DNA of 64,000 bases from Desulfomonilia bacterium (lineage in GTDB: Bacteria; Desulfobacterota; Desulfomonilia; UBA1062): contig JBEKDT010000009.1 in the NCBI GenBank assembly GCA_050014195.1, positions 1 through 64,000 of the forward strand. Reading direction: 5' to 3'. This document shows positions 4,858-46,772 of the stretch, piece after piece. Position 1 is the stretch's first letter; each line of letters begins with the position of its first letter. The notes beneath the pieces are model-generated. The model saw only the letters and a program-made list of their open reading frames with translations. It had not been told where the DNA came from and searched no databases. Both the position numbers and the translations under genes were made by a program.

Positions 4858-4918
4858 GGTTAACGCCGCTCTTCAGCGGGCTCGGTTTTTTGCGATCCGC
4901 TGAAAGAGCATGTTAGCG
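4858..4918 (-). other. Integron attC site (cassette 3)
   Basis: Minus strand CGCTAAC...imperfect palindrome...GTTAACC; inverse core complements cassette start GTTAGCGG at 5583. Confidence 0.88.
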
Positions 4919-4938
4919 GGTGCGAGTGATGTGTCTGC

Positions 4939-5532
4939 TTAATCAAAAAGCCATTTATTCGGATCAGTGAACATTCTACGGAAGCCGCCAGGTCTTCGCC
5001 TGGAATACTCGGTTATAGTGCTGTCCCAAAGATCACCCGGAGGGCGACACGCATCTCTCCCCAAAGACAACATTATGGCGTCCGAGAGGCAAGCTTCCAG
5101 GATGGTATGCCAATGCGAAGAGTCCATAGCTTCCCCGGTTACTGCCTTACCGTTTGCCAAGAAGCTGTCCGCAACGGAGTCATCTCTTGATCTCCCTGGA
5201 AAAGAAGGAGCAGCAATATTTCCTAGGATACGCTCGAATGAGATTCGTGCGAATCCCTTTGGAGCCAAGACTCGGTCGAAGGCAGCAAGCATAACTCCAA
5301 ATCCCATCTTACTGAGAACATCAGACTTCGGCTGTGTAACATTGTACAACTGACAAGCGACTGCCCACGCCAATGCATGTGGAACCTCATAGACAATGGG
5401 TAGCCCAAGCTCCTTGGAGCGCCTGTTCAAATCATCAAATACGAGAGGCAATTTTCGATTTGCCCGGTCAACTGCTCTGTGGGCCAAAAAATACCAGAAA
5501 GGAGACTCTGATCCGTATTCAAATTTCGCCAT
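4939..5532 (-). CDS. Integron cassette gene, hypothetical protein
   Basis: 197-aa ORF with GAGG RBS, bounded by attC sites. Confidence 0.75.
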   Translation of the reverse strand: MAKFEYGSESPFWYFLAHRAVDRANRKLPLVFDDLNRRSKELGLPIVYEVPHALAWAVACQLYNVTQPKSDVLSKMGFGVMLAAFDRVLAPKGFARISFERILGNIAAPSFPGRSRDDSVADSFLANGKAVTGEAMDSSHWHTILEACLSDAIMLSLGRDACRPPGDLWDSTITEYSRRRPGGFRRMFTDPNKWLFD

Positions 5533-5576
5533 TTTGAATCCTCATTTGCCGGATTGGTAATTAGTATGTGCTATAC

Positions 5577-5642
5577 CGCTAACGTGCGGATCAGCCGGAG
5601 CAAGGCGCGAGCCTTGCGATCGGCTGTATTAGCTGGTTGTGC
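5577..5642 (-). other. Integron attC site (cassette 2)
   Basis: Minus strand GCACAAC...CAGCCGATCGCAAGGCTCGCGCCTTGCTCCGGCTGA...GTTAGCG. Confidence 0.88.
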
Positions 5643-5644
5643 AT

Positions 5645-5923
5645 TTACTGACCTTTCTTGATAATTTTTTGGATGTATTTCTTTTTAAAAGAAAGCTCTT
5701 TGTTGACAAGCTCAAGTATATCCCCGCGGGTCAGCGGCATTTGGGAATCATAATCGAAAATTGTTTCGGCAATGCCAACAACCTCAGCATCTGTGACAGA
5801 TTTCACAATGACTTTTACCAAGTATCTAAATATATCTATCAATTTAAGATGGACTATGTCACCTCGATCAATTTCCTGCAAATCTTTCCATTTTGGATTC
5901 TCTTCCCAGCTATGATTTTTCAT
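5645..5923 (-). CDS. Integron cassette gene, small hypothetical protein
   Basis: 92-aa ORF exactly filling the space between two attC sites; AGGAG RBS. Confidence 0.75.
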   Translation of the reverse strand: MKNHSWEENPKWKDLQEIDRGDIVHLKLIDIFRYLVKVIVKSVTDAEVVGIAETIFDYDSQMPLTRGDILELVNKELSFKKKYIQKIIKKGQ

Positions 5924-5934
5924 CTCATCTCCTT

Positions 5935-5991
5935 GCCCAACGTAAGGATCACCGGCGGCTGAAAGCTGTCCGGTGGATTCTTTTGTTCGGC
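5935..5991 (-). other. Integron attC site (cassette 1)
   Basis: Minus strand GCCGAAC...CACCGGACAGCTTTCAGCCGCCGGTG...GTTGGGC; AGCCGAAC complements cassette start GTTCGGCT at 6745. Confidence 0.9.
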
Positions 5992-6726
5992 TTATGAATA
6001 ATTTTCTCGGATCTTTGTTAATGTTCGAGATAAATCTTCAAAATGATCAATTGAAATTGTTGTTTCAAAAAAATTATGTATCCTGAATGATGCATCAATG
6101 AGGAAGCCAGCAATTGAATCAAGGGTTGGTAAGAAACTTGTTATAGGCTCATCCTTGTAATATACGACTTTAAAATCATCGCCAGATACTTCAAGATGCC
6201 TGTCTACGAGAGCACCGATATTACTATGAGTGTCGTTGCTTAAGAAATTGTATATTGAACGATATTCATCTATCATTCCAGCTCTCTTAAATCTCTGAAA
6301 TATATTTAGAGGCTTATAACCCTTGTCTATTAGCTCTTTTAATGCAGTTTCATGTACTGCAATCTGAGCATCAAGTCCTTCAAATTCTGAAAAATCTTTT
6401 AAAAAAGGATTGGGGGTATTCTTTGCTTCATTTAAAAGTTTAAGCCATTGTTCATGATAACTGGCATCCATATGATACCCATAGTTAGCATTTTCATGAA
6501 GGTTTCTCAGTTCAATATACGCTTCAAAAAATGATCTAAATATTGGAGCAATTCCTGTTCTTAACTTGCTTTCTATAAGCTTAAGAATGCAACCTGTAAA
6601 TTCTATCAGAGTTCCATATAAGCCTACTAGGTGGAGGTGTCTTGGGTGGGTCTTATCGAATGTAATATGATTTGTGTGGTTAATACATTCTTCATGTAAC
6701 CGTTTAACAAACACCAATATTTCCAT
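5992..6726 (-). CDS. Integron cassette gene, DUF5677-like helical protein
   Basis: 244 aa, AT-rich; RSFFEAYI and YRSIYNFLSNDTHSN motifs resemble DUF5677/HEPN-like proteins. Confidence 0.65.
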   Translation of the reverse strand: MEILVFVKRLHEECINHTNHITFDKTHPRHLHLVGLYGTLIEFTGCILKLIESKLRTGIAPIFRSFFEAYIELRNLHENANYGYHMDASYHEQWLKLLNEAKNTPNPFLKDFSEFEGLDAQIAVHETALKELIDKGYKPLNIFQRFKRAGMIDEYRSIYNFLSNDTHSNIGALVDRHLEVSGDDFKVVYYKDEPITSFLPTLDSIAGFLIDASFRIHNFFETTISIDHFEDLSRTLTKIRENYS

Positions 6727-6738
6727 TAGATCTCCTTA

Positions 6739-6814
6739 GCCGAACAATAATTATACGGCATTTTTGCCGTATATCTACATTATTAACCGAAGCATTTTTG
6801 CCGTATATCCAGAT
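6739..6814 (-). other. attI-like recombination site heading the cassette array
   Basis: Minus strand GTT core at 6745 preceded by palindrome TATACGGCA-N4-TGCCGTATA; 18-bp direct repeat at 6758-6775 and 6792-6809. Confidence 0.7.
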
Positions 6815-7016
6815 TTTTTGTGCATGACAATAGGATGTAAATATAACGTGCCAAAGGTCACGGTCTGATATGAAGTGTCTTGCTGTGTATGTTTCATCCC
6901 AAGACGATCGTTTTTTATGCATCTCAAAACCGAGAAGAAATCGCAGTTATCTCTGCTTTATTTAAGATGTGCTTATGGCTATATTGACCTGAACTATTGT
7001 GTAAAGGGAGGAGGGT

Positions 7017-7328
7017 ATGGATATAGTTTTCATGATAGCAGTAATTTTTTGTTTAATAGCGATAAGCATTATACTTTATCAGTTATCAGGTGGATTAAAA
7101 GAGTTAATAAGATTAATGAAAGAAACTAATATGTATATACATGGTGATTCTCTTTTCCCGTCAGAAAAAGGCCTTCAGGATTTGGTAATAGAAAAAGGTC
7201 ATGCAATTAAATACGAATTGGAACTACTCCGGTATGCTGTTTATGGAGAAGGAATCCCGAGAGAACATGGAGTAAATATTCTAGAGATACTTGGAGATAT
7301 AAAGGCTGAAATCGTGAGGCGGGGTTAG
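7017..7328 (+). CDS. Hypothetical membrane-anchored protein
   Basis: N-terminal hydrophobic helix, purine-rich RBS, GC hairpin plus T-run at the stop. Confidence 0.6.
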   Translation: MDIVFMIAVIFCLIAISIILYQLSGGLKELIRLMKETNMYIHGDSLFPSEKGLQDLVIEKGHAIKYELELLRYAVYGEGIPREHGVNILEILGDIKAEIVRRG

Positions 7329-7421
7329 ATACCTGCCCTTTTTATTGATCCAACCACGGTCATTCTATACGGTCTTCTTGGGCTTTTTAGGGGGCTATAT
7401 TTTATTTCAAGTGAAGATTTA

Positions 7422-8309
7422 TCACTTTTTAGTTCCCTTGCTGACCTCTGTAATTACCAGACTACGCTTCACGATCTGCTCCTGAGTCTGGAACAGGTCG
7501 CAAAACGGAATGGGGATCGTAAACACATCATCTTTTTTGAAATCCCATAAAGTATACTCTTTGGCTAACTCTCCCGGGGGGTCAGCGCTTAATGCTTCCA
7601 TCCCGATGAGTACAATATTCCTGTCTGACAATCCGTTCCTTGCCAGATCCATTTTCACGTCCTTGAAACTGATGGCACAGAACGATCTGATGTAAATAAG
7701 GATAAGGTCTCCGTATGAACGTAGTCTGGAGACATCAAGATTACTGATCCGAAAGTCTTTTGGATGCAGAATGGCCTTCTGGAAGTCGTCGTACTGGAAG
7801 TACTCCTTCACCTGGATTAAGAATGCCAAACTCGACTTACCTGCAATGGCTCTAAAACTGTACTTCCCATCGGAAATTAAGGGTGCGTCTTGCGTTATGA
7901 AGACTGCTGTGTCGACGCCAGTGTCGCTTTCTGGGTAGCCAATTAACATTCTCTTACCCCTGATCTTGAAGCCATTGTACTCAACCAAGCGATCAAGGTA
8001 CCCGGCGTAAATCATAGTGACAAACAACTCGCGAAGTCGTTTACCGTCGATGTCCGAACTACTGTTGAGGGGTATTCTGTCGCTTTGCTTGAATTCAAAT
8101 ACCGGGTTTACAGAAAGGTCCTTGGCTGTCATTGGGATTGCCATGCCAGCATAATTCCTATATCGGTAGTTGAGCGCCGCGCGAATGAGCGCGCAATACC
8201 CCTGTGCCGGCTTCTCCTGACCGACTATGAAGTTACAATACGGTTTGAACATCAGTCGGGTGAGGCTATGACTTAAGTCTTGAAGGCGCCCGTGGTATAT
8301 CCTCTCCAA
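7422..8309 (-). CDS. Hypothetical protein (possible PD-(D/E)xK-like; DTGVDTAV...IQVKE)
   Basis: 295-aa ORF; true start uncertain; family call is weak. Confidence 0.55.
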   Translation of the reverse strand: MERIYHGRLQDLSHSLTRLMFKPYCNFIVGQEKPAQGYCALIRAALNYRYRNYAGMAIPMTAKDLSVNPVFEFKQSDRIPLNSSSDIDGKRLRELFVTMIYAGYLDRLVEYNGFKIRGKRMLIGYPESDTGVDTAVFITQDAPLISDGKYSFRAIAGKSSLAFLIQVKEYFQYDDFQKAILHPKDFRISNLDVSRLRSYGDLILIYIRSFCAISFKDVKMDLARNGLSDRNIVLIGMEALSADPPGELAKEYTLWDFKKDDVFTIPIPFCDLFQTQEQIVKRSLVITEVSKGTKK

Positions 8310-9271
8310 TTGTCACCTAGTGATCATTTTTGCTGCGAATAATTGATATACTACGCTTTTCGTACATCTAATTATTCGAAGTATAATTGCAGTATATTCT
8401 GATATTATGTGTAAGGCAATATGCTGTTAAAATGCTTAGACCATAGATCTCGGTGCCATCAGCAACGCTTCACCAATATTGAAGGTTTCTTTCGAAGATC
8501 TCTACTAGAGGATCAGAATCCACAATTTAGATCTATAATATATGCTGACTACAATATGGATACAATTGCTTATATGTTACTTATACTACATTTTATATTT
8601 TAAAACACAGGTTTTTCAATCCATTGATCTTATAGGCTAAATTGAGCAACCGCGAAATCCATTATGGGACTTGGTTTAAAACGGTGTACTCGGGATAAGA
8701 ACGTATTTTCTTCACAAGAAAAACTGATGAAATCGGTGATCAAAAAAGAATACCCCCTTGACTTCAGCGATTATGGTGAATATATTTTATTCAACACACT
8801 ACTCCACATACATTTTATGTACTGTGGTTTACCGGCCTTCGAGCCGTTCACGTGACGCCTCTTCGTGATGGCGTAGCGAGATGTTGGATGAAGATCTTGT
8901 ATTTGATTCTCATTTGAGATCGGATAACAAGACCATAGGGTTTTAACCCGCCTGAATGATTTCGAATGAATACGTATGTCTACGTGATAAGACAATTGAT
9001 GAGGGTATATCATCAATTATTGTGTCTGGATTAGTCCGTATCAATATTATCATTATCACAAATGATAAGAAAACCTGTTAAATGCCGGTAACTTTCACCT
9101 GTTAACAATCCATTCCTACCAATCATCGGTTCCGTAATAGATCGATGTATCCATATATTGCCGTAGATGAAAGAAAAAGACGCTGCTCCATCATGCCGGT
9201 AAGCCACTGGCAGAGGTGGGGTCACCTGTCGCCTATGTCCGCCAGCCACGGCCATGTAGACAGGTGGGGTG

Positions 9272-9885
9272 TCGCTGGGTGCGCCGAGAGGTGCTCGCCC
9301 AGTGGCGATGAGGGCTGGGGGTAGCTCCCCTTCTACTCAATGACACTCAGCTTAGCTGCTGGAACTGGGCGACTGGGACACAGTGTCTGTGCGCCAATAG
9401 GCACAGATGCCTGGTGGTTATCAAGTGGTGAAAATCCACTGTGGGGGATTGGAGAGATCCTTTAACCCATACCTGGCGGGGGAGATCAAGGTCGAGTACG
9501 ACCTGTATATGGGTTGCCCATATGTGGAGCAGTAATGCTCCGGATCGAAGAGCTCAACCCGTAAAGGCCCATCATCATGGTTGATGGATAAAGCACCCTA
9601 ACCGTCTGCAGGCGGGTGCGACCAGGTAAGCAGATTGAGAGCGGCAAGGCCGAATCGCGATGAAATCGTATTGGGACCGAAAACGGACTCTGTCCGCAAG
9701 TAAGGGGGAGCCTCCAGGTCCTACCCCTACTACCTATACGATGGAGCTACCGCACTCTTTCTGCGAGATAACCACCTAACCAGGCAAGGACCGGACGGCT
9801 GCCTTATGGCAGAGCGAGGTCTGAGAGCGAGACTGACCAGACTCCCGGAAGGGACACCGGAACTGCAAGGCAGTGGTACCGGTGC
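9272..9885 (+). ncRNA. Circularly permuted group II ribozyme (DV-DVI / 47-nt exon / DI-DIII), ORF-less
   Basis: 34-nt DV at 9272-9305 (CGC triad, GAGA loop). DVI with bulged A9335 and end AAT at 9341. GTGCG 5' splice motif downstream at 9389, followed by ~500 nt of GNRA-capped stems and a DIII-like ACACCGGAACTGCAAGGCAGTGGTACCGGTG. Confidence 0.78.
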
Positions 9886-10053
9886 GTAGTCACAGGGTGG
9901 CTCCTGTGATTATTGCGGTCGAAAGGTCTCACCTAGCGTTTTTTTCTTTTCGGGGTGGCTCCCCGATCCCTGCCCTGACGGGTGCGGGGATCGGGGGCTC
10001 ATCCGGCCGGGAGGCCGGTGGCTCCTAATCTCGGAAGAGAGGAGGTACTACCA

Positions 10054-10698
10054 ATGGCACAGTATAGATACATTTGCAGATCATGGCAGGGATTTGTTCA
10101 ACAGGTTGTTACATACCTGAGCAATGCATATTGGCACTATTGTATTGTGCGTATCCCTGACGAGAAGATCAAAAGGGTTACGGCCATAGATGCCAAGCTG
10201 CTATCCTTGTACAATTGTTATATGAGCAAGGATCAGAGGTATAGGCGAAAACAGAAAGGCTTTGCTAACTACCACTATATTCGGTGGAATAACCTTGCTC
10301 TGATCGTGCACACCGAGGGTTCTATTCCTGACACCATAAAAGGTACTGACCGCTTTAAAGACGCAAGGGTGGAGCACCTCATAATACCCGTCAGCAACAA
10401 CCTCTCACTAAAAGCCGTGCACTCGCAGCAAGGGTGGACTGTCTGTATGGATCGAAATACATACCGTGACATCAAATATGAGCTTTACGAGTTGATAAGA
10501 TCATCATCGAGCCAATATGAAGTCATCAGGAGATATAGAAAGCTGAACGGTATCCCTGCATGGCGTGGTGTGATCGAGCAACGCAAGCATCTGCAAAGAT
10601 ATGTGATCGCACAACTCCAAAAGCAGAAGAATATACGAATGAGAAATCTCGATCTCCTCAATAATACCAAGCGCAGGCAATATCCCGTATTCATTTGA
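10054..10698 (+). CDS. Hypothetical, highly basic protein downstream of the permuted ribozyme
   Basis: GGAGG RBS at 10041 and ATG 10054; motifs SWQGFVQQVVTYL, SKDQRYRRKQKGFANYHYIRW; no RT motif. Confidence 0.75.
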   Translation: MAQYRYICRSWQGFVQQVVTYLSNAYWHYCIVRIPDEKIKRVTAIDAKLLSLYNCYMSKDQRYRRKQKGFANYHYIRWNNLALIVHTEGSIPDTIKGTDRFKDARVEHLIIPVSNNLSLKAVHSQQGWTVCMDRNTYRDIKYELYELIRSSSSQYEVIRRYRKLNGIPAWRGVIEQRKHLQRYVIAQLQKQKNIRMRNLDLLNNTKRRQYPVFI

Positions 10699-11155
10699 AC
10701 ACAGGGTATCAGCCATTCAAGCAGAAGCGACACCTCTTTTTTGGGCGGGTAAAGAGGGTCGCCATCCTGCGAACTAACAAACTGTATCAATTCATTGGAT
10801 TAGTACATTTGCATCTACACCATGGTGAATTCCCGGTTTTTCATCATGGTGATCATGGGAATCGGGAGCAAACGGCATTGAATGCCAAGTTATCAATAAC
10901 ATGAAGGATAAACCAAACAATGTCAGAATATCTTGTAAGTATATGGCAAAAACTTATGAGGTAAAGGCCCCCGGAGAGGGTCTAGGTCTTCCCTTGGGCT
11001 GCACTAAAAATATCCCCATATCAGATTATGAAGAATACAGCGTTACCTCGAAACAAGCCTGCAAGCTAATACGAGCACTTAGCAGGAAAAAATAGCTGAT
11101 GTTGACCAGATCCATCATGCAGAACTATAATACTCCTTTTGAAGGAGGAGTATGT

Positions 11156-12301
11156 ATGAAGGGATCGATAATAACCCGGCAAAGATGTTTTATTTGTAAC
11201 AGCCAGTTAATCCATGATGAAAAACGGCATGGATGTTTCTGTAAAGAACATCCGCATGTGGCAGCAACTCAATTCGTAGTTAGGTTTCCTGGAGATATTT
11301 ATCAGAATCACAAGTCATACGAATCAGCTACTCAGACGCTCAATTATCTGAGACATGAGAAGGGGACACGAGGGCAGAAGTTTAATCCTGATGATTACAA
11401 GTCGATTAGACCAAACTCAGTTATGGGTCTCAAGATTAAATACCTCGCTCGAAAAAAGGGCTTGGCATCATATGGGAAGATTGAACACTCTTTAAATCTG
11501 GCTTCAATTCATTTCGGTCCTACAAACGTCCGAGAAATCACTGGAGCTGACATCGAGGATTATCTTTACGGTATACTGCATATCTCAGAGAAGACAAGAA
11601 AGAACCATTGCGATTATATTTGTAATTTCTGGAAATGGTGTTTATCCAGGGGAGTCATTACTCTGGCAGAAATGCCCGTATTCCCCAAGATTGATTACAA
11701 ACTCGGATATCGTAAGATCACTGATTGGGGAACACAGGGTACTGTTCTTGAGAAGGTCAGGGAGATCAGTAAGCAGAATCCAAAGGTATATCTCGCCATT
11801 GATATGCTTGCTACCTATACAAAACTCAGACCCGAAGACATCAGAAGGATAACAGAGGGAAGCCTTGATGAGAATGGTTGGTTAACCATAAACAATCCCA
11901 CAAAGCTCAAGAACAAGTTTAAATACATTCACCTTCACCCTGACCACGTTGAAGCGTGGCGATTATTGCAAAGGCAATCTCCGGCCCTTCCTGATGTTCA
12001 TTTCTTCAGGGATACCAAGACAGGAAAAGTATTCGGCAAGAACCATTTGTATAAGTGGTGGAATAGAGCATGTGCTCTTATAGGGCTCAAGGGTGTTCCT
12101 CTTTACCCCGGCACAAAGCATACAACTGCAACCGAAACAGCGAAGCTCCTGGGAACAGACAAGGCTAGGGGAGCATCAGGATTAACAAACAAGGCATTTG
12201 ATAGGTACTGCCAAGTGGAGAATGATGATTGCTATGAGGTTGTGACGGCTATTAGGAAGCAGAAAGCGGATGTGATACCCCTCAAAAGGAAAAATGAATA
12301 G
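11156..12301 (+). CDS. Tyrosine recombinase/integrase, atypical, with N-terminal Cys/His cluster
   Basis: TKLRPEDI (catalytic R), LYPGTKHTTAT, FDRYCQ (catalytic Y); adjacent to tRNA att; GGAGGAG RBS. Confidence 0.82.
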   Translation: MKGSIITRQRCFICNSQLIHDEKRHGCFCKEHPHVAATQFVVRFPGDIYQNHKSYESATQTLNYLRHEKGTRGQKFNPDDYKSIRPNSVMGLKIKYLARKKGLASYGKIEHSLNLASIHFGPTNVREITGADIEDYLYGILHISEKTRKNHCDYICNFWKWCLSRGVITLAEMPVFPKIDYKLGYRKITDWGTQGTVLEKVREISKQNPKVYLAIDMLATYTKLRPEDIRRITEGSLDENGWLTINNPTKLKNKFKYIHLHPDHVEAWRLLQRQSPALPDVHFFRDTKTGKVFGKNHLYKWWNRACALIGLKGVPLYPGTKHTTATETAKLLGTDKARGASGLTNKAFDRYCQVENDDCYEVVTAIRKQKADVIPLKRKNE

Positions 12302-15143: not shown

Positions 15144-16028
15144 CTACCCCCTTGGGTGGTACCGTTTATGAACCTCTTTGAGCCTGGTTGAGGATATATG
15201 GGTATAAATCTGCGTTGTGGAGATGTCCGCATGGCCGAGCATCATCTGGACAGAGCGCAGGTCAGCCCCGCCGATAAGCAGGTGGGTAGCGAACGAATGC
15301 CTGAGCATATGAGGTGATATCCGTTTCAATATACCCGCTGCGGATGCATATCTTTTGACGGCATACCAGAAGTTCTGCCTGGTCATGGCACCGCCCCTCC
15401 TTGAACAGAAGAGGATATCCGTAGGCTTCTTTACCAGATGAGGCCGTGCGTTCCCGAGATATTCACTAATACAGCGCTGCGCGCTCTCACCCATAGGCAC
15501 AAGGCGCTCTTTATCTCCCTTGCCCCTGCAGACAAGGTAGCCTACATGGAGATTGAGGTTGTGCAGTTTAAGGGTTATGAGCTCGCTCACCCGCAAACCT
15601 GTGGCATAGAGCACCTCAAGCATGGCCTTGTCCCGAATACCGATGGGTGTGGCCACATCCGGGCTTGCAATAAGTTTCTCCACCTCGTCGCGGCTCAATA
15701 CCCCGGGAAGGTATATACCACGTTTCGGGGATGAAAGGTCGCGTGTGGGGTCTGTTTCCATGATCTCCTCTTCGATGAGGAACCGGTAGAACTGTCTGAT
15801 AGAGGAGAGTCTACGGCTGATGCTGGTTGTCTTCAGACCTTTTTCCCTACAAAGGGTAGTATAATCTTCAAGGGTTGCCTGATGTACATCCAGCTCAGAG
15901 ATGCCCTTTTCATCAAGATAAGTCTTAAGATCTTCAAGATCTGATGCATAGGAGGAAACCGTATTTTCCGGAGAAGAACGCTCGGCGATAAGGTATTCCA
16001 GGAAAGAGTCGATCAGCGCATGGCTCAT
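15144..16028 (-). CDS. xerD: Site-specific tyrosine recombinase XerD
   Basis: LYATGLRVSEL, GKGDKERLVP, SPHMLRHSFATHLL, LGHADISTTQIYTH, YHPRG. Confidence 0.95.
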   Translation of the reverse strand: MSHALIDSFLEYLIAERSSPENTVSSYASDLEDLKTYLDEKGISELDVHQATLEDYTTLCREKGLKTTSISRRLSSIRQFYRFLIEEEIMETDPTRDLSSPKRGIYLPGVLSRDEVEKLIASPDVATPIGIRDKAMLEVLYATGLRVSELITLKLHNLNLHVGYLVCRGKGDKERLVPMGESAQRCISEYLGNARPHLVKKPTDILFCSRRGGAMTRQNFWYAVKRYASAAGILKRISPHMLRHSFATHLLIGGADLRSVQMMLGHADISTTQIYTHISSTRLKEVHKRYHPRG

Positions 16029-38316: not shown

Positions 38317-38493
38317 TTCTGTCCTTTCTTTTAGTGCTAAAAGAAAGGACCAAAGAAAACGCACCCCAAGAACCCGCCCTAAAGGGTCCGTTCGCTCGCT
38401 TGGAAAATCCGGGCAGCGGCTAACTCGCTTCGCTCGAACATGAGCCGCTTTCTTCCTGAATTTTCCTGCACTCGCTCACCGGGTTCAAGGGGA
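38317..38493 (+). repeat. ~180-bp MITE-like repeat, left copy
   Basis: Reverse-complement match to 39512-39698 (e.g. TTTTCCTGCACTCGCTCACCGGGTTCAAGGGG, GGGTCCGTTCGCTCGCTTGGAAAATCCGGG). Confidence 0.85.
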
Positions 38494-38722
38494 CCCATAA
38501 CCCCCATATGCATCACGGTAGATTTAGATTTTGTAGGGGCAGCCCTTGTGGCTGCCCTTTACTGTGTCATCCCCGCGGAAGCGGGAATCCAGTCTTTTTA
38601 TTAACTTTCTCAATCTGGATAATTTCAAGAATAGAGAGTATTAGGTTCTATGTGGCATGATAATGCACCCCTGATCCTCCAAAACACCACACAGGAAAAA
38701 GTAGCACGCATGTGCCCTGAAT

Positions 38723-38797
38723 ATCCGGATATACGGCAATTGTGCTTCGGATAACTACTTATGTGAAGCACAATTGCAGTATAGTTATTGTTAGCGC
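38723..38797 (+). other. attI-like site
   Basis: ATCCGGATATACGGCAATTGTGCTTCGG...GCAGTATAGTTATT-GTTAGCG, homologous to the 6739-6814 site. Confidence 0.68.
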
Positions 38798-38807
38798 AGG
38801 ATAAGAC

Positions 38808-39443
38808 ATGATTGACTACGGCAGATTCCCTGAATACTACAAGAACTACACGTGGTCCGGTAAGCATGTGCTGTTTGGCTATCCCCCGGACTCTTTTCCT
38901 GAGTTCAACTGGATTGCGTCTCTTGAAAAGAGGTTCCAGTGGGTGACGAAAAACTGGGCAGCTAACAGCTCGGCATCGAAATATCTCCTTCAAGAGATGA
39001 TCGAATGGGGAGGTAGCCAAAACGGCGTTCTGCAGAAATTCAACGACGCAAGTGGTGAAGTCAATTTGTTCGAGACCCTCGCCGATGTTGTTGATAACCT
39101 ATCCACCCCTGAACTGGCTATTAGTTCCGCCCTTCGCTTGCCTGGCCTTGGCTTAACCTATGCTTCAAAGCTTCTCCGGTTCATGGAACCTGCGACATAT
39201 GGTGCTCTCGATTCGAAAATCAGAGAAGCCCTCAAAGACGATGGGAAACTCCCGAAGATATACGACGGTAACCATAACAGCATGGTGTCTGGCTATGTTC
39301 GGTTCATCAATCTATTGGAGGAAATAAGCGCAGTTTTGAAGCAGAAAGGAATTACGAAGCCAGTCTGCAACCTGAGTGACAACGGTAGCTGGCGAGCGTG
39401 TGAAATCGAAATGGCGCTGTTTTGTTGGGCAGGAAATCAGTAA
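38808..39443 (+). CDS. Cassette gene, putative HhH/OGG-fold DNA glycosylase-like protein
   Basis: EWGG, LPGLGLTYASKLLRF, ALDS, EIEMALF pattern; cassette-bounded. Confidence 0.6.
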   Translation: MIDYGRFPEYYKNYTWSGKHVLFGYPPDSFPEFNWIASLEKRFQWVTKNWAANSSASKYLLQEMIEWGGSQNGVLQKFNDASGEVNLFETLADVVDNLSTPELAISSALRLPGLGLTYASKLLRFMEPATYGALDSKIREALKDDGKLPKIYDGNHNSMVSGYVRFINLLEEISAVLKQKGITKPVCNLSDNGSWRACEIEMALFCWAGNQ

Positions 39444-39446
39444 AGG

Positions 39447-39513
39447 CGCTAACAACGGCATGAAGCGGATCGTGTCCCTGGCGGGCCACTCCCTCTTATG
39501 CCGAGCGTTTTTC
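39447..39513 (+). other. Integron attC site
   Basis: GCGCTAAC (complement of cassette start GTTAGCGC) ...CGGCATGAAG...CTTATGCCG...GTT at 39507. Confidence 0.8.
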
Positions 39514-39698
39514 CCCTTGAACCCGGTGAGCGAGTGCAGGAAAATCCGGGGGAACAGCGGCGTCTGTCTGAGCGGAGTGAAACGAAGCGAGTTCAGCCGC
39601 GGCCCGGATTTTCCAAGCGAGCGAACGGACCCGAAGGGCGGGTTCACGGGGTGCCTTTTCTTTCGTCCTTTCTTTTGGCACCAAAAGAAAGGACAGAA
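39512..39698 (-). repeat. ~185-bp MITE-like repeat, right copy (inverted)
   Basis: Inverted copy of 38317-38493. Confidence 0.85.
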
Positions 39699-39770
39699 AA
39701 ATATATTCTAAAAAGAAAAAACACCACTTCATTAACCGAAGTGATGGGGGATGAGTTTGAGAAAAAAGGC

Positions 39771-39845
39771 TGGAGCGGGAAACGGGATTCGAACCCGCGA
39801 CTTTAACCTTGGCAAGGTTACACTCTACCACTGAGTTATTCCCGC
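39771..39845 (-). tRNA. tRNA-Gly (GCC)
   Basis: GCGGGAATAACTCAGTGGTAGAGTGTAACCTTGCCAAGGTTAAAGTCGCGGGTTCGAATCCCGTTTCCCGCTCCA; promoter TTGACA-N17-TATAAG at 39884-39856. Confidence 0.97.
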
Positions 39846-40092
39846 GCCATCGCCACTTATATGCAAGAGGCCTTTTTTTGTCAAGGCACATTTCCCCGGG
39901 ATAATAATATCGCATGATGGCTCTACAAGACCAGTGACAGACGATCCGTCTTTAGAGGATTCATTTGGGATCGGCCCCATGTCCATTGACAAAATTCCAA
40001 GAGACATTACTAAAAAGAGAATGGAGACATGTTCCTTTGTTTAAGGTGGCCGGTTCAACATCGGGGGAATCGTTTCAGATTTGAGGTGGAAT

Positions 40093-41007
40093 ATGGATGA
40101 AAAACAATCGAGCACAAGTGCCTCTATGGAATTTTTCCAACCTTTGATGGCCATGGTGAACCAGTTTTTATCCGGGCTTCCCGGCATGATGTCCGGCCAA
40201 AAAATGAGCGAGCGAGAGGCCAAGCCGGATAGCCACTCACGATTTTCACCGGATGCCCTGCTCTCCATTATCAAGACCTGGGGGACCTTATCTTCAGCCA
40301 TGAGTGAGCCGTCTGCAACCGGAGCTATCGCAAGCGGCATGGCCTCCCTGCCCGATATCATGTCCAGGTTCTTCCAGACAGGCATGTCGGGCTTTTTGAA
40401 GATCCATGAACAGACCGCAGACAAACTCAAGGACCTTGGAAAACGCACCGAGGCCTATAGGTTCGAAAACCTGGACCAGGACAGCATCAAGGTATGGTCC
40501 GACTTTTATGACAAGGAGATCCGCCAATACCTCAGAGTCCCCCAGCTCGGGCTGGTACGTTTCTACCAGGAGAGGTTTTACCAGACCATTGACAAGTTCA
40601 ATGTCTTTTCCACCACCTTAGCCGAATTCATGCATGTCCTCATGCTCCCCATGGAGAAGACATTCATGGTCTTGCATGATAAGATCGAGGAACAGATCAG
40701 GGAGGGCAAAACCCCTGAAGACCCTCACGAATACTACCGATTGTGGGTGAAGATCCTCGAAGGCCACTACATGACCTTGTTCAAGACTTCCGAGTACACC
40801 AAGGCCCTGTCCGATACATTGAAAACGTATGAGGAATACTTAAGCGCCCGCAACCAAATCGTTACGGATGCCATGCAGTCACTCCCCATACCCACGAACA
40901 AGGACCTCGACGACCTTTACGATGAGCTCTATCACCTCAAGAAACGGGTTAAGGATCTGGAAAAGGCGAACAAGGACCTCAAGAAGTCAGCTGCATCAGG
41001 AGGCTAA
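40093..41007 (+). CDS. phaE: Class III PHA synthase subunit PhaE
   Basis: PQLGLVRFYQE, YYRLWV, LPIPTNKDLDDLYDELYHLKKRVK; upstream of phaC. Confidence 0.88.
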   Translation: MDEKQSSTSASMEFFQPLMAMVNQFLSGLPGMMSGQKMSEREAKPDSHSRFSPDALLSIIKTWGTLSSAMSEPSATGAIASGMASLPDIMSRFFQTGMSGFLKIHEQTADKLKDLGKRTEAYRFENLDQDSIKVWSDFYDKEIRQYLRVPQLGLVRFYQERFYQTIDKFNVFSTTLAEFMHVLMLPMEKTFMVLHDKIEEQIREGKTPEDPHEYYRLWVKILEGHYMTLFKTSEYTKALSDTLKTYEEYLSARNQIVTDAMQSLPIPTNKDLDDLYDELYHLKKRVKDLEKANKDLKKSAASGG

Positions 41008-41010
41008 GTT

Positions 41011-42219
41011 ATGGAGGAAAAACCAAAGATCCCGGTCGACATAATTCTGAAGCACCTCGCGGAAGATGCTGACAAGGCCCAGGACCGTGCAAAAAAGGCC
41101 TCCGAGGTGCTGCTGGGCCCCCTGGAAACAGCGATCGCCACCACCCCATACGAGGTTATCTACCAACAGGACCGTGTCAAGCTGAAACATTACCTGCCCA
41201 TGCGCGAACCATCGAAAGAGATTACCACCCCACTGCTCGTAGTCTATGCCCTCATCAACCGGGAGACCATGCTCGATCTCCAGCCTGAACGTAGCGTAGT
41301 GAAGAACTTTCTTCAGGCCGGTATCGACCTGTACATGATCGACTGGGGATACCCCACCAGGAAGGATAAGTTGCTTACCATAGACGACCACGTGAACGGT
41401 TATATGGATGACATAGTGGATCACGTAAGGGAAAGGTGCCGGGTGGACAAGGTTAATCTCATGGGCATCTGCATGGGGGGTACCTTTTGCGTGATCTATT
41501 CGGCCCTTCACCCTGAAAAGGTCAGAAACCTCGTGACCACGGTATCACCCACCAACTTTGACACCGACCAGGGACTGCTGCACATCTGGATGAAAAACGT
41601 GGACGTAGACCTGATGGTCGATGCCTTCGGCAACATGCCTGGTGACATCATGAACTTCGGGTTCCTCCTGCTGAACCCGGCTCGCCTTATGATCGACAAG
41701 TATGTGGGTTTTATGGAGAACATGGACAACAAGACCTTTGTGGAGAACTTCATCCGCATGGAAAAGTGGATCTTTGACAGCCCGGATGTGCCGGGTGAGA
41801 CCTTCCGTCAGTTCGTGAAGGACTGCTATCAGAAGAACCTCCTCATCCAGAGCAAGCTCTTTGTGGGAGGAAAACGCGTAGACCTCAAGAAGATTACCAT
41901 GCCCCTGCTCAATATCTACGGACTCTACGACCATCTCGTGCCGCCCGGGGCTGCAGACAAGATCACCGGTGCAGTGGGAAGCACGGACAAGGAGGATCTC
42001 TGCCTTGATACAGGCCACATCGGCATATATGTGAGTTCCAAGACTCAGAGGGAATTCACACCGAAGATCATCCGGTGGCTCAAGGACAGGGACACCCCAA
42101 AAAAAGAAGCGACCGTGAAAAAACAGCCCGTCCGCAAGACGCCTAAAAAGGCTGCAAAAGGCTCGTGGATAACCAGGACAAAGAATACCACCCGTTCAAA
42201 GGAGATAACCAATGCCTGA
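41011..42219 (+). CDS. phaC: Class III PHA synthase subunit PhaC
   Basis: PLLVVYALINR, lipase box GICMGG, YDHLVP, GHIG. Confidence 0.95.
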   Translation: MEEKPKIPVDIILKHLAEDADKAQDRAKKASEVLLGPLETAIATTPYEVIYQQDRVKLKHYLPMREPSKEITTPLLVVYALINRETMLDLQPERSVVKNFLQAGIDLYMIDWGYPTRKDKLLTIDDHVNGYMDDIVDHVRERCRVDKVNLMGICMGGTFCVIYSALHPEKVRNLVTTVSPTNFDTDQGLLHIWMKNVDVDLMVDAFGNMPGDIMNFGFLLLNPARLMIDKYVGFMENMDNKTFVENFIRMEKWIFDSPDVPGETFRQFVKDCYQKNLLIQSKLFVGGKRVDLKKITMPLLNIYGLYDHLVPPGAADKITGAVGSTDKEDLCLDTGHIGIYVSSKTQREFTPKIIRWLKDRDTPKKEATVKKQPVRKTPKKAAKGSWITRTKNTTRSKEITNA

Positions 42220-43264
42220 GAAAAGTGACTACTTCAAGACCTTCTGCAAGGTGAGCAGGGCCTTCGGCACTACGCTGAAAAAGGAAAAGGTGCTTGACCT
42301 CATTGTGCAGAGCGCCATTGAAACTATGGATGGCAAGGCAGCATGCCTCTTCTTCGAAGATGATCAGAAAGAAAGCGATATCTTTGTCCCCATAGCCCAG
42401 AAAGGCCTCTCGAAGAGCTATCTCCACGCAGAGCCCAGGGAGGCCAAGCGGGCTTCGGAAGAGATCATGAAGAAGGGATATATCGCCATACACGATGCCA
42501 CCACAGACCCTCGGGTGAAGACACACGAACTCAAAAAGAAGGAAGGGATCGCATCCATCCTGGTAGTGCCGGTCGTCGTAAAGGAGAGGGTAAAAGGCGT
42601 GCTCACCCTGTATACGGGTAAGCCCCGGATCTTTTCCGATGACGAGATCCTTTTCCTCACGGCGCTTGCCGAACAAGGCGGAATGGCCATTGAGCGGGCC
42701 CGACTCGTTATGCAGATCACACGGAACATCCGTATCTTTACCAACATAGCCCAGGGGCTTAACGAGAGTCTGGATATAAAAATAATCATGGAGCGTCTGT
42801 CCGTGGACATGGCCGATGCCCTTGGTGTCAAGGCGGTTTCCGTGCGGCTCATCGATAAGGACAAGGAGGAACTCGAACTTGTGGCCAGCCACGGCCTGAG
42901 CAAGAAATATCTGAACAAAGGGCCGGTCCGGATCGAGAAGAGCGTTACCGAGGCGCTCAAGGGGAAGACCGTGGTCATCAGGGACGCCACTACCCATAAA
43001 GAGGTACAGTACAAGGATGAGAAAAGGAAGGAGGGTATCGCTTCCATCCTCACTGTGCCCATCAAGGTCAAGGATGAGGTCATCGGGGTCATGAGGTATT
43101 ATTCGGCAGAAGAAAGGGATTTCACCGAGGGTGAGGTCATGCTGGCAGAGGCAGTCGCCAGCCTTGGCGGCCTGGCCATCCAGAATGCATCCATGTACCT
43201 GATGCTGAAACAGGATATACAGTGCCTCAAGGAGGACATCTGGAGCCACCGTTCGTGGTTCTAG
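42212..43264 (+). CDS. Tandem-GAF-domain protein
   Basis: Two internal repeats KEGIASIL.VP..VK..V.GV; no output domain. Confidence 0.85.
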   Translation: MPEKSDYFKTFCKVSRAFGTTLKKEKVLDLIVQSAIETMDGKAACLFFEDDQKESDIFVPIAQKGLSKSYLHAEPREAKRASEEIMKKGYIAIHDATTDPRVKTHELKKKEGIASILVVPVVVKERVKGVLTLYTGKPRIFSDDEILFLTALAEQGGMAIERARLVMQITRNIRIFTNIAQGLNESLDIKIIMERLSVDMADALGVKAVSVRLIDKDKEELELVASHGLSKKYLNKGPVRIEKSVTEALKGKTVVIRDATTHKEVQYKDEKRKEGIASILTVPIKVKDEVIGVMRYYSAEERDFTEGEVMLAEAVASLGGLAIQNASMYLMLKQDIQCLKEDIWSHRSWF

Positions 43265-43289
43265 GCTGTTATAATAAGGAGGGCGACAC

Positions 43290-43712
43290 ATGCTTGGCAG
43301 ATCGATCAATGAAATGAAGATAGGCGATTTCGCGGAATTCTCTAAGACCGTCTCCGAGACGGACATCTACCTTTTTGCAGGCATCGTAGGCGATTTCAAC
43401 CCAGCCCATGTGAATGAGGCATACGCCAAGAACACCTTCTTCAAGACCAGAATCGCCCACGGCATGCTCGCCGCAGGCTTTGTATCCTCAGCCATCGGCA
43501 TGCAGCTGCCTGGACCGGGCACTATCTATATCAGCCAGGAGTTGAAGTTCTTAGGCCCGGTACACATCGGCGACACGGTGACCGCCCACGTGGAGGTCTC
43601 CGAGATGAATATGGAAAAGAACCGGGTGAAGCTCAAGACCTGGTGCGTGAACCAGGACGGCGTGAAGATCCTGGAAGGCGACGCCATGGCAAGCCCGCCG
43701 AAGAAGGGGTAG
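43290..43712 (+). CDS. phaJ: MaoC-family (R)-specific enoyl-CoA hydratase
   Basis: GDFNPAH, RIAHGML, LPGPGTIY. Confidence 0.88.
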   Translation: MLGRSINEMKIGDFAEFSKTVSETDIYLFAGIVGDFNPAHVNEAYAKNTFFKTRIAHGMLAAGFVSSAIGMQLPGPGTIYISQELKFLGPVHIGDTVTAHVEVSEMNMEKNRVKLKTWCVNQDGVKILEGDAMASPPKKG

Positions 43713-44009
43713 CGATCGCCGTCAGAAGTTCTTCTTTCTCTTAAGAGTGTCATTATATCTGCGCAGCACCACCTTGATGCTGCGCAGATACTCCCTGCTT
43801 TGACCATTGAAGCATCAAAGAGCACCTCTTGATTCTTGGATTATAGAAATGCTTATGATATATTTAACAACCAGTTAGAATGCGATGTCATCCATGATTC
43901 TGCATCTGAGAAAATCTATGATTTAAAACATGGGAGGATGGACGATCTTGAATTTGCCAGAAGATCAGTTCCCATAATTCAGTAATGAACGAATCCACTC
44001 ATATTCTGT

Positions 44010-44044
44010 TATACCGGAAAAAGACGGTATAGTAATTGTTCGCC
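44010..44044 (+). other. attI-like site (core palindrome only)
   Basis: TATACCG-N8-CGGTATA-GTAATT-GTTCGCC; same GTATA-N6-GTT spacing as the other two sites. Confidence 0.6.
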
Positions 44045-44161
44045 TTTACTAATACTGCTGTATTGAACTCCATTGCCCTGCAACATGACAAAAACAAAGT
44101 CAAAAATCATTATTGGTTTCTGATTGAATCTTATGCCTCATTTGCTTATGATGTCTGACAA

Positions 44162-45724
44162 ATGAATATATCTGCACTGACAACCATGGAGAAACAGAAG
44201 GCCGAGGCCGATGATCACGCCCTGCTCTCCATACCTGAAAATCTACGCATTAGCTTCTTCTCCTCTACATCCTCACCTCAACAAAAGGAACTCGGGCAGT
44301 TTCTAACGCCTCCACATGTTGCAGACCTCATGGCGACTATGTTTCAGGGTTTTTCGAGAACTGTTCGTTTACTCGACGCAGGGGCAGGCATGGGGATTCT
44401 TTCTGCTGCTTTTGTCCGCCGACAACTCCTTAGCAATACTCCGCCAAAACGAATCGAGGTTACAGCTTACGAAATGGATAAAGCCTTCATCAGTGGGCTC
44501 GAAAAGACCTGCGAAGCTTGTTGTGCTGCGTGCCAGGACAGGGGAATTGAATTCTATGCTACCATCCGGAATGCTGACTTCATTGAAGAAGGTGCAGAGA
44601 TGCTGCGTAATGATCTTTTCTCACAGATGCCACCATCCTTCGATGCTGCTATTGTCAATCCCCCATATGGAAAACTCTCCACAACGTCGGTGGCCTATCG
44701 CCGCCTACGATCTGTGGGCGCTGAAACAACTAACATGTATACTGCTTTTCTGAACTTGATCATCGGTCTGTTGAAACCTCATGGTGAACTTGTCGCCATA
44801 ACGCCTCGTAGTTTCTGCAATGGTCCTTATTTCAAGCCGTTTCGTAAACGTCTTATTTCAGAAATGTCGTTTTGCGATATCCATGTCTTTGAATCAAGGA
44901 AAACGGCCTTCAAGCATGACAGCGTCTTACAGGAAAACATTATTCTACATGCCGTTAAGTCTTTGCAGCAAACCCATACAATCCGAGTATCACAGAGCGG
45001 CGGCGGAGACGGAGACGCTGTTCAAACTTGTGTGTTTCCGGCTATCGAAATCGTATCGCCCCGGGATACCGAGGCTTTCATTCATATTCCAACCACCCCA
45101 AAGGATGTCGTCGCGCGCAATCAGATATCGCAACTTGAGGCAACACTATCGTCTCTCGGCTTGACGGTTTCGACTGGTCGAGTTGTAGATTTTCGCGCGC
45201 GGGAACATATCCGGCAAGAACCTGAGCGCTGTTTTGCTCCTCTAATCTACCCTTGCCACTTTGATGGGCTTTTTGTGTCTTGGCCTAAGGTGAACTCCCG
45301 CAAACCCAATGCGATTCTTGATAATGCTGGTACTCAAAGTCTCCTCATTCCGGCTGGTGTGTACGTCTTGACGAAGCGGTTCACATCTAAAGAAGAGCGG
45401 CGTCGGGTTGTCGCCTGTATTTATGATCCGAGTCGTGTTCAAGCAGAGCATGTTGGCCTCGAGAACCACTTAAATTACATCCATGCCAGTGGTAGGGGTA
45501 TTGACATGACCTTGGCAAAGGGTCTCTGGGCTTTTCTCAATTCGTCACCTTTGGATCTTTATTTTCGTCAATTCAACGGACACACCCAGGTCAATGCAAC
45601 TGACCTACGCAATGTGAGATTCCCTTCCGCCGAACAGCTTCGCCGAATCGGCCACCAAATTCTAGAAGAATCCATTGGCCAGGAAAAAATCGACCAACTC
45701 ATCAGCTGGGAGTTGAAATCATGA
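44162..45724 (+). CDS. Type II m6A DNA methyltransferase (BsuBI/PstI-like, gamma class)
   Basis: LGQFLTP, LLDAGAGMG, VNPPY, FNGHTQVNATDL. Confidence 0.9.
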   Translation: MNISALTTMEKQKAEADDHALLSIPENLRISFFSSTSSPQQKELGQFLTPPHVADLMATMFQGFSRTVRLLDAGAGMGILSAAFVRRQLLSNTPPKRIEVTAYEMDKAFISGLEKTCEACCAACQDRGIEFYATIRNADFIEEGAEMLRNDLFSQMPPSFDAAIVNPPYGKLSTTSVAYRRLRSVGAETTNMYTAFLNLIIGLLKPHGELVAITPRSFCNGPYFKPFRKRLISEMSFCDIHVFESRKTAFKHDSVLQENIILHAVKSLQQTHTIRVSQSGGGDGDAVQTCVFPAIEIVSPRDTEAFIHIPTTPKDVVARNQISQLEATLSSLGLTVSTGRVVDFRAREHIRQEPERCFAPLIYPCHFDGLFVSWPKVNSRKPNAILDNAGTQSLLIPAGVYVLTKRFTSKEERRRVVACIYDPSRVQAEHVGLENHLNYIHASGRGIDMTLAKGLWAFLNSSPLDLYFRQFNGHTQVNATDLRNVRFPSAEQLRRIGHQILEESIGQEKIDQLISWELKS

Positions 45725-46707
45725 GCCCACCATCCAGCAAAGGCAAGCCTCTCGGTATGCGAAAGCTAAAAGAGGCTATGGCGATACTGCGCGCTGTTGG
45801 TTTTGGCCCAAAACAAACCAACGATGTCGCTGGATATGTTCTTCTGGCGCTCCTTGACCTCGGTCCCAATGAAAGTTGGGACGCTGCCCGTAACCCGCGG
45901 CGTGGTATCACTCCGATTATTGAATTCGTAGCCGGTAAGTACCGTTTACGTTATGCCCCAAACACACGCGAGACTATCCGCGACGAAGCCGTGAAGTATT
46001 TTGTTGAAGAGGGGTTTCTCATAAAAAACCCGGACGACCTGAGCCGACCAACGACCAGCGGCAAGACCGTCTATCAGATCGAACCTACAGCACTACGCTT
46101 ATGCCAATCTTTCAAAACGGACATATGGGACTCCACCCTTAAGCACTATCTCTCGACACGAGAAAAGATAAAACGTGAATTACAGCGGGCGAGAGACATA
46201 GCGCGCATCCCAGTGCTGTTGCCGTCTGGCGAGAAGATCACACTTTCGCCCGGTGGTCAGAATCCTCTCATTAAAGCCTTTATCGAGGAGTTCTGCACCC
46301 GTTTTGTTCACAATGGTGTTGTTCTATACGTAGGGGACGCCGAAAACAAGTTCCAACACTTCAAAGTCGAATACTTCAAGAGTCTAGGTGTAGAGATAGA
46401 CTCGGCTGCCAAGATGCCTGACATTGTTGTCTATGACTCCAAGCGTCAATGGCTGGTCATCGGCGAAGCAGTGACCAGCGCGGGTGTGGTCGACGGTAAA
46501 CGACGCCGTGAACTCAAAGACCTTTTCGGTGGTTTCCACAAGGGGCTTGTATTCGTAACAGCGTTCGATACGCGTGCCGTAATGGGACGTTTTCTCAGTC
46601 AAATTTCATGGGAGACAGAAGTCTGGATCGCTGAAGATCCTGATCACGTTGTCCATTTCAACGGTGAACGCTTTCTTGGCCCGTATCCTGACACTATAAT
46701 TGGATGA
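45721..46707 (+). CDS. BsuBI/PstI-family restriction endonuclease
   Basis: YAPNTRETIRD, LSPGGQN, KMPDIV, EAVTS, ISWETEVW, HFNGERFLGPY. Confidence 0.92.
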   Translation: MSPPSSKGKPLGMRKLKEAMAILRAVGFGPKQTNDVAGYVLLALLDLGPNESWDAARNPRRGITPIIEFVAGKYRLRYAPNTRETIRDEAVKYFVEEGFLIKNPDDLSRPTTSGKTVYQIEPTALRLCQSFKTDIWDSTLKHYLSTREKIKRELQRARDIARIPVLLPSGEKITLSPGGQNPLIKAFIEEFCTRFVHNGVVLYVGDAENKFQHFKVEYFKSLGVEIDSAAKMPDIVVYDSKRQWLVIGEAVTSAGVVDGKRRRELKDLFGGFHKGLVFVTAFDTRAVMGRFLSQISWETEVWIAEDPDHVVHFNGERFLGPYPDTIIG

Positions 46708-46715
46708 TCAAAAAA

Positions 46716-46772
46716 GGCGAACAAAAGGATGCATCGGACGGCTAAAGCCGCCGGTGATCCGCAGCGTTGGCG
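46716..46772 (+). other. Integron attC site closing the R-M cassette
   Basis: AAAGGCGAAC is the exact complement of cassette start GTTCGCCTTT (44038); palindromic body; GTTGGCG end; closely similar to attC 5935-5991. Confidence 0.88.

Follow-up and report, generated by a model that had tools for sequence, protein, structure and literature searches.

The 64-kb window analysed here (positions 1 to 64,000 of contig JBEKDT010000009.1, from the Desulfomonilia bacterium assembly GCA_050014195.1) contains five integron attC sites, grouped as three cassette loci that were found exactly where an earlier note, made from the letters of the sequence, had placed them. Classed by their number of attC sites, and with no integron integrase gene (intI) near, locus 1 is an integrase-less attC cluster (CALIN; three attC), and loci 2 and 3 are lone attC sites that lack an integrase (SALIN; one each). 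Each locus is headed by an attI-like site, called orphan here as no intI adjoins it, and these sites are the main subject of the analysis. Throughout, G000 denotes this genome, other G numbers its relatives, C a contig and L a fetched locus. The loci are composed as follows:

6743-6860, minus strand: orphan attI site 1, type A, with the core GTATAATTATTG|TT at 6743-6756
5935-6745, minus strand: cassette 1a, a DUF5677 open reading frame (ORF; 5992-6726) with attC at 5991-5935
5577-5941, minus strand: cassette 1b, a 92-aa ORF without family match (5645-5923) with attC at 5642-5577
4858-5583, minus strand: cassette 1c, a 197-aa ORF without family match (4939-5532) with attC at 4918-4858
38615-38792, plus strand: orphan attI site 2, type A, with the core at 38779-38792 and a 19-bp imperfect hairpin (z = -7.5)
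38790-39513, plus strand: cassette 2, a 211-aa ORF (38808-39443) with attC at 39447-39513
43872-44040, plus strand: orphan attI site 3, type B, with the core at 44027-44040
44038-46772, plus strand: cassette 3, a methyltransferase (44162-45724) and an endonuclease (45721-46707) with attC at 46716-46772

All five attC sites form a bulged hairpin when folded, and alignment of the trimmed sites showed the architecture R''-spacer-L''...L'-spacer-R', with AAC pairing with GTT in 5/5 and compensatory changes at 9 of the 17 consensus pairs. Two covariance models were built, R1 from the five window sites and R2 from 40 attC sites of this genome. R1 gave 37 matches at E<=1 genome-wide, and R2 at the same threshold recovered exactly the same five sites within the window, where covariance-model scores were 46-67 bits. 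Genome-wide, R2 at E<=0.1 counted 44 or more attC sites spread over 14 contigs, a lower bound with 150 of 1828 candidates scored. The start core of each cassette had been described as complementary to the inverse core of its own attC, and this was exact in four of the five, namely cassettes 1a, 1c, 2, and 3 (in 1a, GTTCGGC is the reverse complement of GCCGAAC), with a single mismatch to the complement of its own R'' in cassette 1b (GTTGGGC vs GTTGTGC).

At the left boundary, each locus carries the core GTATA(A/G)T(A/T)ATTG|TT, the vertical line marking the crossover point. The GTATA-N6-GTT motif and the TATAC/GTATA inverted repeat that had been read from the sequence were found at all three sites, and the longer stretch ATC(T/C)GGATATACGGCAA...TGCTTCGG(T/A)TAA is common to sites 1 and 2. 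A genome-wide scan for the motif, named in the earlier note as a check, put the core above its control: the 14-mer GTATARTWATTGTT occurs 9 times in the genome vs 0 for a reversed-pattern control, and a looser form 20 times vs 4-12 in five shuffles. The core is the end of a longer module, of which three subfamilies (types A, B, and C) were distinguished. Type A is present in 18 copies (16 full, 2 partial) of ~125-140 nt each, with repeated boxes in two direct and one inverted copy and a left limit, shared among the copies, that does not reach the intI start. Within site 1, the GATATACGGCAAAAATGC box stands in two direct copies together with a 9-bp hairpin (fold z = -4.1), and the site 2 module shows 82% identity over 181 nt to a copy at C15:12656-12836 of this genome. 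A same-strand attC follows 7 of the 18 type-A modules, with weak attC candidates at two more. One further copy in the window was absent from the earlier note:

8338-8450, minus strand: fourth type-A module, with the degenerate core GTATATCAATTATT and without GTT

This copy is followed by a 295-aa ORF (7422-8309), and attC was not detected there. The type-A modules, the type-B site, a type-C site, and other strict cores add up to ~22 attI-like sites in the genome, which bears out the proposed dispersal of such sites without an adjacent intI.

Comparison with relatives that carry an integrase gene gave these sites their identity. I searched 61 genomes (this genome and 60 relatives) for intI using the TIGR02249 cut-off; 16 of them, including 9 of the 14 of the same genus, had a gene above it, and 12 intI loci were fetched from those relatives. 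Five of the 12 (L010, L012, L016, L017, and L020) have the strict core, in divergent arrangement, at a distance of 110-170 nt upstream of intI, and L011 and L013 hold spacing or sequence variants of the intI-adjacent core. As for the remaining loci, the intI-adjacent attI of L015 (G002:C5) is interrupted by an inserted element, L014 and L018 have little or no sequence upstream of intI, and L009 and L019 have the canonical place without the core. The ~80-150-nt module together with its core was found beside intI in the congeners G007, G008, G012, G021, and G033. All three subfamilies are represented: the last 46 nt of site 3 are nearly identical to the intI-adjacent attI of G007 (type B), in G008 the intI-adjacent site matches the type-A module seen at sites 1 and 2, and in G012 and G033 it matches the type-C site of contig C6. 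The subfamilies, at least three in all, have their intI-adjacent representatives in different genomes.

The position at which homology breaks off is the same in these comparisons. In G012, the intI-adjacent attI (L016) and a copy on another contig (L081) agree at every position over ~95 nt and separate directly after GTT, and five type-A copies bracketed by repeats show five different continuations after GTT. The sites thus have the conserved left part up to G|TT, followed by variable cassettes, that marks an attI; a position between intI and the first cassette is not seen at the window loci and is seen in their homologues in the five congeners. The earlier note had taken the boundaries for attI-like and named the comparison with an intI-adjacent attI as a check, for which the congener intI loci supplied the match. 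Because the same core and upstream module adjoin intI in congeners, sequence comparison identifies the left boundaries of the three arrays as true attI sites and not minimal GTT sites.

The inverted repeat abutting the core is frequent, at about half of the sites, and not universal: TATAC occurs within 86 nt upstream at 22 of 41 strict-core sites. Inner-arm complementarity averaged 4.65 of 8 positions over 17 distinct arm pairs, compared with 0.8-2.1 of 8 when the partner was shifted by 1-4 nt, and complementarity is kept while the inner arms vary among sites (CGGCA, CTGCA, CCGAAGTCA, CAGAATT, and others). Repeated boxes for IntI binding, or a folded form, may underlie the inverted repeat, whose variable arms hint that the clade's attI may be recognised partly by shape, like attC. 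A promoter in the attI core was considered and rejected, the 10-of-12 consensus match being confined to site 1 and not above shuffles. Rfam gave no match at modules or repeats, at the gathering threshold over the whole window and at E<=1 over 6600-8600.

Several observations concern insertions and neighbours of the modules. An element coding for a tyrosine recombinase (294 aa; Phage_integrase with a SAM-like N-terminal domain) starts directly after the attI GTT in the orphan loci L074 (G002:C21) and L075 (G003:C7), and also interrupts the intI-adjacent attI of G002 (L015); this element may target attI. Just upstream of the site-1 module, at window 6843-6959, lies a ~115-nt repeat with ~30 genome copies at 70-82% identity, which is contiguous with a type-A attI module in G002 and has no Rfam match. 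At C29:7630, a type-A module is interrupted at its core by a sequence end that is common to the ends of C2, C17, C18, C19, and C26 and is probably an insertion sequence. At C7:130334-131836 (L102) of this genome, a degenerate copy of the type-A module stands ~250 nt away from a divergent generic tyrosine recombinase gene (353-374 aa), of which a 97% identical second copy exists at C7:69927-71142. This recombinase was rejected as an IntI, as it falls below all NCBIfam cut-offs and its second copy has no module.

That no intI adjoins any of the three loci had been stated before, and both a profile search and tblastn agreed. In the whole assembly, no TIGR02249 match reached the 265-bit cut-off, the best (82.7 bits) being the tyrosine recombinase at window 15144-16028, which is XerD (380.9 bits vs a cut-off of 329.6). 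With 11 congener IntI proteins as queries, tblastn at E<=10 found nothing within ~2 kb upstream of the three sites. No complete integron, with intI adjoining attI and array, is thus present at these loci.

The sole trace of intI in the assembly is a 3' pseudogene piece at C10:179410-179553 of ~38 C-terminal codons with two in-frame stops, which keeps the catalytic-tyrosine box and was matched by every one of the 11 IntI queries run there. An attC (C10:179556-179612) is joined to it in direct fusion, the two together spanning C10:179410-179612 (L045:3411-3613), and the piece adjoins a metallophosphoesterase gene, the same gene that neighbours intI in G004 and G024. Public contigs bridged this junction in 4/4 runs with 0 differences and no alternative joint listed, and are incapable of showing that an intact intI allele is absent. 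It looks as if the 5' part of intI was lost together with attI, through recombination or deletion with one end point in the array and the other inside intI. A candidate relic of the intI 5' part at site 3 (43725-43769, from a gapped DNA alignment; peptide VLRRYNDTLKRKKNF, E 2.5) was rejected because window 43713-43871 recurs in G008, likewise downstream of the MaoC gene and without an integron.

Orphan sites were also found in relatives, both with and without an integrase. The core pattern has 30 matches in 15 of 41 family genomes (this genome included) vs 5 control matches. G002, with 3 intI over the cut-off, has all of its 6 strict cores on contigs other than theirs, and the 5 cores of G024 are likewise apart from the contigs of its 2 intI; G007 has a core at a distance of 68 kb from intI; and in G014, G001, and G006 the core is present with no intI match. 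Among 20 orphan-core loci taken from relatives, a same-strand attC lies downstream in 11, and several of the remaining loci reach a contig edge or contain an inserted element. One candidate, G008:C10, was rejected as an orphan site on account of intI codons 2-78 lying upstream. At L078 (G024:C42:47400-53500), two orphan attI cores of the same orientation stand 3.7 kb apart as tandem mini-arrays, each followed by its own attC-bounded cassettes.

Comparison of the flanking genes across the genus showed the three loci to be strain-variable insertions rather than platforms fixed in core DNA. Locus 2 follows the stop of an asparaginyl/aspartyl-tRNA-synthetase-like gene (38311) and precedes a tRNA gene (39774-39845), and in 9 of the 14 congeners these neighbours are 60-300 nt apart without attI or repeat, three more congeners being uninformative. 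G003 (flanks 95% identical) and G002 carry the same flanking repeat pair at this position, and between the repeats an oppositely pointing type-C attI with other cassettes. Locus 3 has a MaoC-dehydratase gene on one side and a convergent gene on the other, the two being separated by 3.2 kb here vs 35 nt in G003 (flanks 96-97% identical) and <=160 nt in four other congeners; in three more the gap is filled by 0.5-1.2 kb of other sequence, with no strict core. Since G008 shares the first ~160 nt after MaoC, the strain-specific part begins near 43872. Locus 1 lies within an ~8-kb island that has no counterpart in any of the 14 congeners except short repeats. The idea of resident platforms in core DNA therefore did not hold, loci 2 and 3 being absent from most congeners and locus 1 being part of a strain-specific island, and of the empty sites and different cassettes that had been named as things to look for in related genomes, the first were found as positions lacking the whole unit and the second as other cassettes in the same slots.

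At the edge of the island holding locus 1, window 47-123 matches an Rfam group II intron (47.8 bits) and a 575-aa ORF lies downstream (961-2688); the first 127 bases of the window are identical to the end of contig C26.

A pair of orthologous orphan slots lies outside the window. G000:C15 and G003:C39 have flanks that are 93-95% identical and three unrelated cassettes each, and homology between them runs exactly up to the GTT of attI (12834) and picks up again at the right repeat (15761). By its sequence, this pattern would be the expected trace of IntI activity at an orphan attI.

The repeats in question form a family of ~190-nt elements with a long foldback and a 13-bp hairpin, two copies of which, absent from the earlier note, bracket locus 2:

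38317-38491, minus strand: left repeat copy ('REP'), inner end facing the attI, matching the right copy at 83% identity (186 nt)
39514-39705, plus strand: right repeat copy, fold z = -5.8

The GTT of the locus-2 attC abuts the inner end of the right repeat directly, and ~120 nt separate the attI module from the left repeat at its inner end, so that locus 2 has two inverted repeat copies bracketing cargo, as in a composite of MITEs (miniature inverted-repeat transposable elements). The same bracketed layout occurs in this genome on C15, C28, C16, and C3, and in relatives at G003:C5 (three cassettes), G003:C17 (one), and G004:C18 (two); bracketed slots hold a type-C attI in relatives and type A in this genome. 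The C15 unit is absent in G002, G008, G014, G010, and G006, where the flanking genes are 32-155 nt apart, and a G003 slot orthologous to the C28/C15-end slot of this genome holds the other attI type in opposite orientation. Single copies of the repeat also occur in relatives. A possible 9-nt target-site duplication at locus 2 matches at 8/9 bases with outer ends that are not fixed, and target-site duplications of the bracketed units were not established, empty-site flanks being too diverged or occupied by other repeats. The repeat pairs may be either the ends of MITE-like composite elements or homology arms that exchange whole units.

Two bracketed type-A modules, at C3:203229-205770 (L053) and C28:13590-14968 (L051), are followed by genes without detectable attC, a TIR-domain protein with a 371-aa unknown at one and an HNH-repeat protein at the other. 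At the contig ends of C28 and C16, truncated copies of the ~190-nt repeat are followed by another repeat at the same position.

Among the window cassettes, cassette 3 encodes an Eco57I/N6-type type II methyltransferase and a BsuBI/PstI-family restriction endonuclease. The ORFs of cassettes 1b, 1c, and 2 gave no Pfam match above cut-off and none in NCBIfam, that of cassette 2 having a weak OGG-like Pfam match below cut-off. The suggestion that the loci stock defence-type genes consequently stood for the restriction-modification pair of locus 3 and failed for the other four of the five cassettes, whose ORFs had 0/4 matches in PADLOC. Just downstream of the locus-1 array, and outside any cassette, an AAA_14/DUF4143 ATPase at window 3005-4138 (minus strand) gives a 462-bit match to the PADLOC candidate defence family PDC-S01.

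I read the three loci as integron cassette arrays of the CALIN/SALIN kind that are probably headed by orphan copies of the clade's own attI and loaded in trans, with a probability of about 0.7. A trans-acting integron integrase would have loaded the cassettes via attI x attC recombination at G|TT, and its source may have been the genome's own chromosomal IntI before its destruction, or an incoming one. Each orphan attI would be roughly the whole intI-attI intergenic module (~80-150 nt) with none of intI, and the modules would form a dispersed repeat family of ~22 sites and three subfamilies in strain-variable DNA. In this clade, the integron's platform for capture thus seems distributed among many loci and not confined to one. 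Some of the modules would occupy slots bracketed by the inverted ~190-nt repeats, within which attI-plus-cassette units have apparently been exchanged or inverted. The system now looks frozen in this genome because only the 3' intI fragment remains in the assembly.

Several points weigh against loading in trans at orphan copies of attI. All of the evidence is comparative, and the assembly is a draft of 29 contigs (completeness estimate 100%), so that unassembled sequence could hold an intact intI, or this assembly alone could be without one. GTT is absent at the crossover position in 9/18 type-A modules and 9-11/18 have no detectable downstream attC; some of these copies may be dead or serve in another role, for example as a promoter. 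Three attI subfamilies coexist in one genome. The replacement of arrays at orthologous slots could also have come about by homologous exchange of the entire unit.

The earlier note had all sites serviced in trans by one IntI, and for the genus this is plausible; in this genome, the assembly has no intact IntI that could do so, and the subfamilies' intI-adjacent representatives are split among genomes. A bolder version is a distributed integron, in which intI-less attI modules multiply at many loci, often bracketed by repeats, and one or a few IntI load and unload them in trans. The repeats would then be MITE-like ends or portable homology arms for moving, swapping, and flipping units. I regard this extension as tentative and somewhat doubtful.

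The strongest alternative, which I consider unlikely and which is the origin classically put forward for CALINs, has every locus descend from a complete integron of its own, with intI deleted later and attI never used in trans. Decay of intI does occur in this genome, as the C10 piece attests, and the stretch upstream of the type-C site at C6:101931 resembles the promoter region beside intI in G012 and G033. At window 7064-7102 (plus), near site 1, there is a peptide resembling an IntI N-terminus (KHYTLSV..IRWIKR) on the strand expected for a site-1 intI, a weak hint given its E of 0.075-0.2 in a tiny search space. Against separate relics, tblastn at E<=10 brought up no significant remnant of intI in the ~2 kb upstream of the three sites, and the site-3 candidate lies in sequence that G008 shares, integron-free, downstream of the same gene. 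The common left limit of the 18 type-A modules would demand many deletions with the same end point, and the bracketed slots leave only ~95-120 nt between repeat and attI, with no room for intI. Orphan sites also occur in genomes with an intact intI.

Far less probable is a reading in which the ~130-nt module has nothing to do with recombination and is either a small mobile element or a dispersed repeat with promoter or regulatory function, which would simply tend to stand upstream of accessory genes. The nine type-A copies without GTT would fit such a role, as would the several copies directly upstream of an attC-less ORF (for instance 8338-8450) and a TATAAT/TATAGT hexamer 4-7 nt before GTT, which at site 1 is part of the 10-of-12 promoter match. 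Promoter-like matches were, however, not above the shuffle background and there were none at the cores of sites 2 and 3. A promoter repeat also leaves unaccounted for that homology between copies ends exactly at G|TT, that the next cassette carries the complement of its own R'', and that the same module stands beside intI in congeners; a promoter (Pc) role would be compatible with attI identity and no replacement for it. Least likely of all is insertion of the cassettes at ordinary secondary sites (attG, with GWT) and an incidental similarity of the left boundaries: insertion at GWT has been shown experimentally and proposed as the origin of SALINs and small CALINs (10.1101/2022.09.11.507474; this and the other published sources are cited from the portions of their text that were available), and loci 2 and 3 are single-cassette SALINs, but the attG sites described in that portion share only GWT and weak flanking motifs, and the boundaries here, far from GWT without extended conservation, have a 14-nt near-invariant core (9 occurrences vs 0 in the control) and 80-150 nt of homology to intI-adjacent attI.

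The origin and function of CALINs and SALINs are an open question, and the arrays described here carry their own recognisable attI, with sister genomes whose cassette content differs exactly at the attI crossover. If the distributed integron is real, CALINs and SALINs in this lineage would be working integron outposts and not debris. If orphan attI copies are serviced in trans, counts of integrons per genome that are based on intI would understate the capture platform. Orphan attI would moreover offer cassettes, including restriction-modification systems, a route to core chromosomal positions. Trans-serviced orphan attI, some of them in repeat-bracketed slots, are in any case a concrete and testable hypothesis.

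The best-known attI for comparison is attI1 of class 1 integrons, which consists of a simple site and the direct repeats DR1 and DR2. The sites described here resemble it in having the G|TT crossover at the right edge, repeated boxes upstream and, in congeners, a position between intI and the first cassette; they differ in having no sequence similarity to attI1, a variable-arm inverted repeat at about half of the sites, and an occurrence without intI. Neither 'orphan attI' nor 'solo attI' appears as a term among the literature matches listed, which is no proof of absence.

As arrays, the loci are close to known CALINs and SALINs (PMC4889954; 10.1101/2022.09.11.507474), with one to three cassettes with canonical attC, several arrays per genome, and no intI or recognisable pseudogene beside them. 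According to the available portion of PMC4889954, intI pseudogenes lie near only 15 of 279 CALINs (95% without), and attI was searched there only as exact class 1-3 sequences; Loot et al. (10.1101/2022.09.11.507474) attribute SALINs and small CALINs to insertion at GWT genome sites. Unlike the arrays in these accounts, those described here are headed by a clade-specific attI module that is itself a multi-copy dispersed repeat. Extra attI copies that are functional have been reported inside the arrays of mobile integrons, as delta-attI-type gene cassettes (PMC12901181), and the present sites are similarly attI copies away from a primary attI that may act as recombination partners. The delta-attI-type copies, however, sit inside intI-adjacent arrays on clinical mobile integrons, whereas the copies here head separate chromosomal arrays.

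The bracketed slots recall MITE-flanked integrons and integron mobilization units, for example in Acinetobacter johnsonii, where two 439-bp MITEs surround a Tn402-like integron (PMC3934969; review PMC3575428), in that two copies of a small foldback repeat bracket integron material. The unit bracketed here consists of attI and cassettes without intI, its brackets are inverted with inner ends facing each other, and the same slot differs in attI type and orientation among sister genomes; neither a target-site duplication nor a transposase is established here. Lastly, sedentary chromosomal integrons have been described as stores of anti-phage systems (10.1101/2024.07.02.601686), and the type II restriction-modification pair of locus 3, held as one cassette, is of the same kind, against a recognisable defence function in only 1/5 of the window cassettes. 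What is new relative to these systems is the multi-copy attI module and its repeat-bracketed, exchangeable slots.

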